From: Promethearchaeum sp.
Lineage (GTDB): Archaea; Asgardarchaeota; Lokiarchaeia; Sigyniarchaeales; Promethearchaeaceae
Direction of reading: 5' to 3'
Assembly: GCA_030611625.1 (NCBI GenBank)
Contig: JAUWPK010000002.1
Location: 1 to 24,000 of the forward strand
Length of the DNA stretch: 24,000 nucleotides
Part shown: positions 8,999 to 10,906 of the stretch, in pieces
Position numbering within the stretch: position 1 is the stretch's first letter
How the letters are laid out: each line of letters opens with the position of its first letter
Made by a program: the position numbers and the translations under genes
The notes under the pieces: model-generated
What the model saw: the letters and a program-made list of their open reading frames with translations, nothing else
The model's database searches: none
Told to the model about the DNA's origin: nothing

Positions 8999-9760
8999 TT
9001 ATATCTCCCTAATCTTAATTTTCTTCTTTAATGATTGAGAATATGAGAAATTTAAAAGATTTTGATTTCTTAAAATAAATTTACCCCCAATTCCTTTAAA
9101 CCCTTCTATAATCCCCGAAATATTCTTGGGTTTTCCACTTTTTGAATAATTAACCTTAGCTTCCGAAATAGCATGAAGAGTAAAGAGTGGATTTCCTAAA
9201 ACATCCAAAAATCGTTGAGCTTTTTTATCACCAACATCTACTAATCCTTCAAGGAAATATTTTTGGTCTTTAGCTGTAATTTCCTCGCTTAAGGACTCTT
9301 TATCAATTTTGGGAATAATATCGGGAAAATATCCCTTAGATTGCTCTAATTTTGCAATTTCAACAATAACTTTAGCAGTTTCAAAGGCGTCTTTTGTTGG
9401 AATAATAGGAATGTTCATTTTATATGTAGCATATACCAAAGCCCCGTAGATCGAACTTTCCTTAACAAATTTCCTGAATGTTTTTTCTAAGGATTCAATA
9501 ATCAATATTGGAAATTGAAAAACATTCTTTAATTTGGACAGTTGTTGAAAAAACCGTGTATCAAAAATTGAAGAAACAAGATCATCCCCTCTCTTTCGTT
9601 CGATTGCACAGCGCGAAGAAACGATGTAATCGCCGAAATCCAGAGTTTCAATACTAAGGTCGCATTCTAAATTATCAAAAGCACTTCTAATTTCACCTCG
9701 TTCCCTTTCATCTAAAATTATTTTTGGAGATGAAGGTGAATTAGAGATTTTATTGTTCAT
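8999..9760 (-). CDS. Short archaeal XPF/ERCC4-family structure-specific nuclease (nuclease domain plus HhH2), catalytic motif intact
   Basis: The ERCC4 signature FGDYIVSSRCAIERKRGDDLVSSI (GDx(n)ERKxxxD) lies at nt 9581-9634. The C-terminal tandem helix-hairpin-helix reads FLEGLVDVGDKKAQRFLDVLG ... EGFKGIGGKFILRN. There is no helicase domain. Confidence 0.85.
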   Translation of the reverse strand: MNNKISNSPSSPKIILDERERGEIRSAFDNLECDLSIETLDFGDYIVSSRCAIERKRGDDLVSSIFDTRFFQQLSKLKNVFQFPILIIESLEKTFRKFVKESSIYGALVYATYKMNIPIIPTKDAFETAKVIVEIAKLEQSKGYFPDIIPKIDKESLSEEITAKDQKYFLEGLVDVGDKKAQRFLDVLGNPLFTLHAISEAKVNYSKSGKPKNISGIIEGFKGIGGKFILRNQNLLNFSYSQSLKKKIKIREI

Positions 9761-9815
9761 TAAAAAATTGCACCCTAAACATTTATTTACTGTATAATTA
9801 AAATCATTTTTGAGG

Positions 9816-10496
9816 ATGAGTGATAATCTGAATTCGACTAAATTACATGCAATTATTGACGAAGACTCATATGAAAAGTTCCAGAATTTGATAGATCAAT
9901 TGGAAAAACTCGATTTTTATATAGAAAAGAAAGAAATCGGTAAAAATTTCGTCCAAATCCCTCCTAATGGCGGTGTTTTAATCTTAAAATCAAAGAACTT
10001 GGATGGAAAATCTCTTTTGTCAAATATGGACAAAAAAATAAAGGAATTTTCTAATCTAATACCGAATGGTGTAATTATCTTTGAAAATTTCAACAGATTG
10101 GGTGTAAAAAAGAGAGAATTAGTTCAAAAGATATTGTTTAAGCAAATTCTTAACTCAGAATCGACATTTAACGGGATTATCCCCACAAGAAATCCATCAG
10201 AAACTGCATTATGTATAAAAAGCATAGCAAAAAGGGAACAAATTGAAGATCTTCCACCAATATTAAGTAGAATAAAACGAAAATCAAAGTATCTTTCAGA
10301 TTACCAAATTTTTTTTATTGAAGGGTTACTCCAATGTGGAACAAAAAAAGCAAAAGCCCTTCTGAAGGTTTTCGATAGCCCACAGGAGATTATCAATGCA
10401 ATTCTCTATGATCCAGTTAAAATATCAGAAATAAAGGGATTTGGCAAGAAATTTATTGGTATTAATCAAAAACTTCTTCAAAATAATCTAAAATAA
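9816..10496 (+). CDS. ERCC4/XPF paralog with degenerate active site plus HhH2 (ERCC1/Eme1-like non-catalytic partner candidate)
   Basis: It is collinear with the neighbouring XPF: AIIDE vs ILDERE, IPTRNPSETALCIKSIAKREQ vs IPTKDAFETAKVIVEIAKLEQ, and FFIEGLLQCGTKKAKALLKVFDS...IKGFGKKFIGINQ vs the HhH2. The nuclease signature is replaced by GKNF...VLILKSKNLDGKSLLSNM (nt 9939-10010), so ERK becomes LKS and GDY becomes GKN. I prefer ATG 9816 over the track's TTG 9810. Confidence 0.7.
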   Translation: MSDNLNSTKLHAIIDEDSYEKFQNLIDQLEKLDFYIEKKEIGKNFVQIPPNGGVLILKSKNLDGKSLLSNMDKKIKEFSNLIPNGVIIFENFNRLGVKKRELVQKILFKQILNSESTFNGIIPTRNPSETALCIKSIAKREQIEDLPPILSRIKRKSKYLSDYQIFFIEGLLQCGTKKAKALLKVFDSPQEIINAILYDPVKISEIKGFGKKFIGINQKLLQNNLK

Positions 10497-10531: not shown

Positions 10532-10906
10532 ATGCAAGATCCAATTCAGCATTATGAAGTAGGATGTAAATTTTGGATTAAAGGATCAAATGATTTTACT
10601 ATGGGCCCAGGTGATGTCCAATTAATAAAAAAACTAATAGAATTCAATAACCTTACAAAAGCTGCCACAGTTTGCCATTATTCCTATAAATATGCTTGGA
10701 AAAAGATTAAAAATATTTCTGAAAAAACCGGTAAAGCAATCGTCAATAGCCACAGAGGAGGTAAAGGTGGTGGTGGAGAAGTAATGGTTACTTCTTGGGG
10801 GAAACATTTGATTTTTCTTTTTGAAAGTGCTGAAAAACAGCTGAATAAAACAATCAGTGAAATTAATGCTGAATTTACAAAAAACATTTCTGAGAAACAT
10901 TTTTAA
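10532..10906 (+). CDS. ModE N-terminal-domain-like winged-helix transcriptional regulator (no Mop/TOBE domains)
   Basis: GPGDVQLIKKLIEFNNLTKAATVCHYSYKYAWKKIKNISEKTGKAIVNSHRGGKGGGGEVMVTSWG parallels E. coli ModE (SISQGAKDAGISYKSAWDAINEMN...ERATGGKGGGGAVLTRYG). Confidence 0.8.
   Translation: MQDPIQHYEVGCKFWIKGSNDFTMGPGDVQLIKKLIEFNNLTKAATVCHYSYKYAWKKIKNISEKTGKAIVNSHRGGKGGGGEVMVTSWGKHLIFLFESAEKQLNKTISEINAEFTKNISEKHF

Follow-up and report, generated by a model that had tools for sequence, protein, structure and literature searches.

Whether an archaeon can build an XPF-family nuclease from one subunit that cuts and one that does not is the question raised by two neighbouring genes in a 24,000-nucleotide stretch of DNA from Promethearchaeum sp. 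(contig JAUWPK010000002.1, positions 1 to 24,000), hereafter called the window. Reviews describe XPF-family enzymes as homodimers in archaea, and in eukaryotes as heterodimers that pair a catalytic with a non-catalytic member (PMC3905867, PMC6320978). The two genes, named A and B here, are transcribed divergently, A from the minus strand and B from the plus strand, and the gap of about 55 bp between them that a first-pass annotation of the window had described was borne out (9761-9815). Gene A encodes a short XPF with a complete active site, and gene B a paralog in which this site is lost. The pair is real and conserved, and a heterodimer is plausible: judged from the genomic evidence, a two-subunit XPF-family structure-specific endonuclease formed by A and B is the best explanation of the locus, and we favour it with moderate confidence. 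Coordinates of the features are collected in Table 1.

Protein A matched the Pfam ERCC4 family (PF02732) with an E value of 5.5e-27 and 94.8 bits (cut-off 24), as well as the NCBIfam models of Hef and of archaeal Xpf. Among PDB sequences, it matched the nuclease domain of Hef (1j22, E 2.6e-20) and the XPF of Aeropyrum pernix (ApXPF; 2bgw, E 1.6e-17), the latter alignment reaching residue 202, into the tandem helix-hairpin-helix (HhH2) domain. The AlphaFold2 (AF2) model of A had a predicted local distance difference test score (pLDDT) of 85.5, and its helices at residues 163-245 contain both hairpins, VGDKKA and GIGGKF. The active site is complete. In the DERE block, D17 and E20 are invariant among 20 XPFs and R19 is nearly so; in the segment corresponding to the GDXnERKX3D motif (defined in PMC3905867), D44, Y45, E54, R55, K56 and D60 are invariant in the same set. 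The ratio of nonsynonymous to synonymous substitution rates (dN/dS) of A among close relatives was 0.08-0.09. Its ERCC4, NCBIfam and PDB matches, together with the full DERE/GDY/ERKRGDD set, confirm the minus-strand gene as the catalytic member, as had been proposed. Two further features of A were noted: the 16-residue insert between its HhH motifs, for which AF2 predicted strands at residues 202-205 and 211-215, and its C-terminus. There, a QxLLxxS[YF] motif followed by a basic, Lys-rich tail recurs in XPF orthologs (P0026-P0059). It is not the canonical QxxhxxFF box, and from its conservation we infer only tentatively a candidate PCNA-binding site. The C-terminus of the window B protein reads NQKLLQNNLK and has no aromatic residues; canonical versions of the motif occur in some other B proteins (QHLLRDFF in P0063, QTLLKKYF in P0060).

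Protein B is a paralog of A, with a similarity well beyond chance. By BLASTP the two share 36% identity over 118 amino acids (aa) (E 1e-12), a region that begins with the nuclease domain's last strand and helix and takes in the HhH2 domain. Alignment with hhalign of a profile of 20 XPFs to a profile of 41 B proteins joined residues 10-244 of A with residues 8-226 of B over 219 columns (probability 99.96%, E 6.6e-39). The Pfam ERCC4 model had no significant match in B and weakly matched 7 of the 41 family members, while the NCBIfam Hef model matched B with an E value of 1.6e-13, under its curated cut-off. Searches of PDB sequences with the B profile returned archaeal XPF and Hef only, including the HhH2 domain of Hef (1x2i). 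In the AF2 model of B (pLDDT 80), the secondary-structure elements follow one another as they do in A. The top Foldseek matches of this model were ApXPF (E 6.7e-8) and the Hef nuclease domain (template modelling (TM) score 0.80, root-mean-square deviation 3.4 Å), followed by FANCM, FAAP24, Zip2/Spo16, Mus81/Eme1 and ERCC1.

The catalytic residues of A have no counterpart in B. In the hhalign columns, G43-D44-Y45 of A are equivalent to N44-F45-V46 of B and E54-R55-K56 to L55-I56-L57; D44 is replaced by F, E54/R55/K56 by L/I/L and D59/D60 by K/N. The first-pass annotation had given exact coordinates for the motifs (GDY...ERKRGDD at 9581-9634, GKN...LKSKNLDG at 9939-10010) and had judged by eye that the two proteins are collinear. 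Collinearity held in hhalign, but the register by eye was two to three residues off; either register leaves B without a catalytic residue. Its description of the plus-strand gene as a degenerate ERCC4-like and HhH paralog is upheld by hhalign, by the AF2 and Foldseek results and by the catalytic columns. Conservation in B is concentrated elsewhere. Its Lys/Arg-rich linker, xDxPPxLxRxKxK, has R140, D145, P148 and R152 invariant across 41 diverse members, and a PTR...AKRxQ segment is conserved as well. In the HhH2 domain, all 41 have G170, G175 and L182, and 39 have K178. Residues 146-153, within the invariant linker, fell below a pLDDT of 50 in the single-chain AF2 model, a profile that would be expected of a segment ordered only on a partner.

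To place B in a family, 1.84 billion representative sequences were searched with a profile, yielding 448 matches (30 below 1e-30), which were sorted by their catalytic columns into degenerate and catalytic groups. The degenerate group, of about 56 sequences, is without the D of GDY and both the E and the K of ERK; the other group consists of 111 catalytic XPF/Hef proteins that retain these residues. The ERK columns of the B family read LIL, LYL, FYL or LLL. Across the 41 diverse members, no column within residues 1-122 of B reached 60% D/E, so no substitute metal site is conserved. An alternative active site in B was rejected for want of a conserved acidic cluster; a second complete set of metal-binding residues was looked for in these members and none was found, and the degeneracy stands. 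The family is monophyletic: a pure clade with at least 90% of the degenerate sequences was recovered in 100 of 100 neighbour-joining (NJ) bootstraps. Open reading frames (ORFs) are intact in the approximately 56 sequences, with divergence down to 26% identity, and dN/dS among close relatives of B was 0.19-0.28, which places B under purifying selection, though laxer than A. Conservation in the two families is complementary: XPF keeps its N-terminal catalytic part and has a freely varying linker, while B keeps its linker and HhH2 and varies freely in the N-terminal part. Named sources of B are all Promethearchaeum or Promethearchaeota (the Lokiarchaeial phylum in NCBI taxonomy), apart from one "Patescibacteria" label on a 1.4-kb contig, which is probably misbinned. 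A narrow B alignment (A1) searched against a genome collection gave five loci, all from Promethearchaeum or Promethearchaeota, and a metagenome scan with a deep-branching B subgroup gave two short contigs only. A homolog search seeded with an alignment added few named proteins.

We scanned every fetched locus with hidden Markov models (HMMs) and evaluated the linkage of B with XPF in the 15 loci that were informative; a further one, L012, was uninformative, with B at the contig edge. In 12 of the 15, B adjoins XPF or lies within 3.5 kb of it, so the pair is indeed conserved as neighbours in related genomes, a point that the first-pass annotation had proposed to check. Three gene arrangements were seen. 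A head-to-head arrangement was found at 10 distinct loci (the window, P. syntrophicum MK-D1 (L001/L008), L003, L004, L005, L006, L007, L009/L013, L010 and L019), across which identity drops to 43% for XPF and about 39% for B. In L002 an 824-aa gene and a flavodoxin-like gene intervene, and the distance is 3.5 kb. In L011 they are 1.4 kb apart and separated by a membrane-protein gene, with an 873-aa DEAD helicase and HIRAN in the flanks and RadA about 3.9 kb upstream. The remaining three loci, L014, L015 and L016, have XPF and no B within the visible flanks. The 55-bp spacer is itself conserved: 53-54 of its 55 bases (96-98%) are identical among the window, MK-D1, L006 and L007, while synonymous divergence in the flanking coding regions of the same four genomes is 0.17-0.72.

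These observations could be explained as follows. B arose from a duplicated Asgard-type short XPF. All metal-binding and catalytic residues have gone, yet the nuclease domain still has its C-terminal strand and helix, and B also has the invariant linker and a canonical HhH2 domain. It would stand in for the second protomer that the ancestral homodimer had. Members of the family dimerize through HhH2 and, in archaeal enzymes, through the nuclease domains too (PMC3905867, PMC6320978), and A and B may likewise pair through their nuclease-like and HhH2 domains. The complex would have a single active site, that of A, which would do the cutting, while B, with its canonical HhH2 and basic linker, could bind an arm of the DNA and possibly recruit partners. 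A is perhaps tethered to PCNA through its C-terminal QxLLxxSY, the candidate tail being present in A only and not in the window B. Finally, one divergent promoter region of 55 bp would drive both genes, so that their expression is kept coupled.

Two metagenome proteins join such modules in a single chain. P0098 (497 aa) has two ERCC4+HhH2 modules: residues 3-210 are B-like (69 bits with the B HMM versus 26 with the XPF HMM) and residues 257-494 are XPF-like (97 versus 60 bits), with ERK replaced by RVY and DERE by SKKN in the latter. By these scores and motifs it looks like a fused double pseudo-nuclease. P0106, a Hef-like helicase of 1077 aa, has a tandem of ERCC4-HhH2 modules in which a degenerate one (ADF...VRM, residues 657-835) precedes a catalytic one (GDY...ERK, residues 858-1069); going by its motifs, it is a single-chain analogue of a dead and live pair. 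The tandem modules of both proteins are compatible with intramolecular pairing.

Several observations weigh against a heterodimer. Both HhH hairpins are retained in A, which could still form a homodimer. Conservation is poor in B's N-terminal domain, where a tight nuclease-domain interface would lead one to expect the opposite. XPF occurs with no B in the visible flanks at L014, L015 and L016, and 10 of the 12 linked loci have in common a single large block of synteny (Rce1-like, XPF, B, ModE-like, actin with zinc ribbon, prenyltransferase). Adjacency may thus largely reflect lineage synteny rather than selection for linkage, and taken by itself it counts for less than the number of loci would imply, the promoter and the two rearranged loci being the stronger evidence. 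Some of these points would also suit a B that acts alone, as a homodimer or monomer, serving as a non-catalytic binder of branched DNA or a scaffold co-regulated with XPF, with A a conventional homodimer. A has everything that a homodimeric XPF needs, B keeps both hairpins of a canonical HhH2 together with its basic linker, three XPF loci have no B nearby, and XPF's HhH2 domain, when isolated, reportedly forms stable homodimers in vitro (PMC6320978). We nevertheless hold this explanation to be rather unlikely. All known non-catalytic members of the family are partners in heterodimers (PMC3905867; PMC6320978), the best conservation between A and B falls in the end of the nuclease domain and in HhH2, which are the dimerization regions of the family, linkage survives in the rearranged L002 and L011, and P0098 fuses a B-like with an XPF-like module. 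The presence of the linked dead paralog would argue against A being a simple homodimer.

Alternatively, B could pair with A as a dominant-negative regulator, the A-B complex being inactive or restrained and limiting flap cleavage until release or remodelling. The shared divergent promoter and the lack of catalytic residues are in agreement with such a role, as is the invariant linker, predicted to be disordered in B alone as a binding segment would be. However, in the ApXPF homodimer as modelled by Newman et al. in 2005, and in XPF-ERCC1, only one active site reportedly engages the substrate, so that loss of the other site need not inhibit activity. No XPF-family partner is known to act as an inhibitor, and we regard an inhibitory B as improbable. 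That B could be a functionless, decaying duplicate or an annotation artefact is brought to mind by its missing Pfam ERCC4 match and its variable N-terminal domain, but this can hardly be so in view of its intact ORFs across the divergent family, its invariant motifs, its confidently predicted fold and its low dN/dS. Pseudogene status was rejected on that dN/dS, and the conservation data effectively refute decay.

We then considered where B comes from. In an NJ tree built without eukaryotic sequences, the B clade adjoins 39 Asgard-type short XPFs, including all 25 XPFs found with A as query, and the split joining them was recovered in 66 of 100 bootstraps. The spacing between the HhH2 hairpins adds to this picture. 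It is 47 aa in 25 of 25 Asgard XPFs and 31 in ApXPF and most other XPFs, the difference being the 16-residue insert (..YTKSGKPKGISG..). Among B proteins, 19 of 56 have a spacing of 39-48 residues, and remnants of the insert are recognisable in several (e.g. YTRTGNPKGVTG); in Lokiarchaeial B proteins, including that of the window, the spacing is shortened to 34. Tree placement and insert remnants together indicate that B descends from the insert-bearing XPF subtype. None of the 41 B members matched the Pfam Rad10/ERCC1 family (PF03834), and the B profile found no ERCC1, Eme1 or FAAP24 chain among PDB sequences. The simplest reading of these sequences, and the more likely one, is that B arose by an independent, lineage-specific duplication of an Asgard-type short XPF, in parallel to ERCC1 and Eme1, given its position next to Asgard XPFs, the insert, the lack of a Rad10/ERCC1 match and its Lokiarchaeial sources. 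The first-pass annotation had suggested that the pair bears on the origin of ERCC1/Eme1-type subunits; the Rad10 result, the grouping with Asgard XPFs and the shared insert leave this unsupported. An asymmetric live and dead XPF pair may instead have existed already in the Asgard ancestors of eukaryotes, with B, or a lost relative, homologous by descent to the ERCC1/Eme1 lineage. B evolves fast, the insert can be lost, as in Lokiarchaeial B proteins, and the analysis was made without eukaryotic sequences or non-Lokiarchaeial Asgard genomes, which leaves some room for shared ancestry, although we give it little credence. In the NJ tree, the B clade has five short XPF-like proteins (P0113, P0135, P0186, P0126 and P0170) as its immediate sister group. 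P0113, P0135 and P0186 read EIK in place of ERK, and these could be partly degenerate intermediates.

Comparison with known systems shows which parts of the arrangement are familiar. A has the same architecture as the crenarchaeal short XPFs of A. pernix and Saccharolobus solfataricus (SsoXPF), with ERCC4 and HhH2 and without a helicase, and its C-terminal tail may bind PCNA; no solved structure is closer to A or to B than ApXPF. ApXPF and SsoXPF are described as symmetric homodimers of one gene product (PMC3905867, PMC6320978), whereas here a dead paralog is encoded alongside, and Asgard-type XPFs, unlike ApXPF, have the 16-residue HhH2 insert. XPF-ERCC1 (Rad1-Rad10) combines, as the proposed A-B pair would, a catalytic subunit with an ERCC4-fold/HhH2 subunit that has no active site. 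In ERCC1, ERK is replaced by LFL or L[F/Y]L (PMC6320978); ERCC1 and B are alike in this change to hydrophobic residues and in keeping a canonical HhH2 in the non-catalytic subunit. They differ in that A has no helicase-like domain and in that B groups with Asgard XPFs, with none of its members matching Rad10. In Mus81-Eme1/Mms4, FANCM-FAAP24 and Zip2-Spo16, too, a duplicated member of the XPF family gave up catalysis and turned into an obligate partner, and these proteins are among the top structural matches of the B model. They are, however, eukaryote-specific and larger, with extra domains, and no specific sequence affinity of B to them was found; in FANCM-FAAP24 and Zip2-Spo16 both subunits are inactive, whereas A is intact. 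The nuclease/HhH2 region of euryarchaeal Hef is the best NCBIfam match of both A and B, and in structure no single domain matches B better than the Hef nuclease domain. Hef is a helicase-nuclease homodimer, while at this locus there is no helicase domain and there are two genes instead of one. One Hef from the profile search, P0197 (1289 aa), has its helicase domain split by an intein with a LAGLIDADG homing endonuclease.

Full-text searches of the literature found no description of an archaeal XPF heterodimer or of a degenerate XPF paralog, and a 2026 review of Asgards says only that they carry XPF. If true, the live and dead pair of Lokiarchaeia would be the first candidate prokaryotic heterodimer of the XPF family. 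As a parallel invention, it would show that the change from a symmetric XPF dimer to a cutter with a DNA-binding partner is a recurrent and easily reached route, the ERK-to-hydrophobic change in B being of the same kind as that in ERCC1. The small size of the proteins (253 and 226 aa) and their lack of helicase domains make the pair tractable for the study of nuclease asymmetry, and since both genes are present in the cultured P. syntrophicum MK-D1, the idea is directly testable.

Table 1. Positions in the window of genes A and B, their motifs and the genes beside them.
Feature	Coordinates	Strand	Basis
Gene A: catalytic XPF of the short type, 253 aa, with HhH2 and an ERCC4 nuclease domain but no helicase domain	8999..9760	-	Pfam, PDB, NCBIfam, AF2
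QNLLNFSY, A residues 233-240, followed by Lys-rich tail; candidate non-canonical PCNA-interaction motif	9041..9064	-	C-terminal conservation
Insert of 16 residues (about 201-216) separating the HhH motifs of A, predicted beta-hairpin	9113..9160	-	spacing and AF2
GDY...ERKRGDD, A residues 43-60, GDXnERKX3D catalytic signature, GDYIVSSRCAIERKRGDD	9581..9634	-	column conservation
DERE, A residues 17-20, N-terminal acidic part of the XPF active site	9701..9712	-	column conservation
Divergent intergenic region, 55 bp, AT-rich TATA-like elements; probably a bidirectional promoter	9761..9815	.	conservation
Gene B: catalytically dead XPF paralog, 226 aa, nuclease-like domain, conserved linker and HhH2	9816..10496	+	hhalign, AF2, Foldseek
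Pseudo-active site, B residues 44-61: GDY to NFV, ERK to LIL, DD to KN	9945..9998	+	hhalign columns
B-specific linker signature AKREQIEDLPPILSRIKRK, residues 138-156	10227..10283	+	family conservation
HhH2 of B, both hairpins intact (CGTKKA, GFGKKF)	10287..10487	+	Pfam HHH_5 E 7e-5; alignment to 1x2i
ModE-like winged-helix gene, 124 aa, 35 bp 3' of B, same strand	10532..10906	+	TIGR00637 ModE repressor domain, E 2.6e-16
Actin homolog, double zinc ribbon at the C-terminus plus a tail of about 120 residues	10955..12619	+	Pfam Actin, E 1.4e-69

The window is AT-rich (about 31% GC), belongs to a Lokiarchaeon near Promethearchaeum syntrophicum and carries chromosomal genes of an ordinary kind, with housekeeping functions such as acyl-CoA dehydrogenase, Band-7, OMP (orotidine 5'-monophosphate) decarboxylase, FolD, prenyltransferase and an actin with a zinc-ribbon tail. 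A PADLOC scan gave no match for A or B, and with housekeeping genes all around, an origin from a defence system or mobile element was rejected. The orthologs in MK-D1 share 88% (A) and 79% (B) identity with the window proteins and lie at about 3.026-3.028 Mb of CP042905.2, that of B being annotated there merely as "helix-hairpin-helix domain-containing protein". The ORF list placed the start of gene B at a TTG (9810); counted from the conserved ATG at 9816, the product has 226 aa, as it does in public databases. For the B ortholog of MK-D1, the annotation begins at a downstream ATG (221 aa; about 4986-5003 of L001). The upstream ATG of the window B and its close relatives is kept in MK-D1 too, and the annotated start may be about six codons short.

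Downstream of B, a gene of 123-146 aa occupies the position of the ModE-like gene in L001, L003, L004, L005, L013 and L019 and is absent beside B in L002 and L011. As a neighbour, the ModE-like gene is conserved throughout the Lokiarchaeial block, following B at every locus there. Co-transcription with B is possible, and the gene may or may not belong to the XPF/B system. The actin homolog, two genes downstream of B, has the same position in the same six loci, and its zinc ribbon was detected in five of the six Lokiarchaeial loci listed, the exception being L005. Outside the block (1291-7087 of L011, 3417-3767 of L012, 2294-4825 of L016), a DEAD/ResIII helicase of about 850 aa lies near XPF and/or B in L011 and L016, as do small HIRAN-domain genes in L011 and L012 and, in L011, RadA. 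These surroundings suggest a repair-gene neighbourhood.

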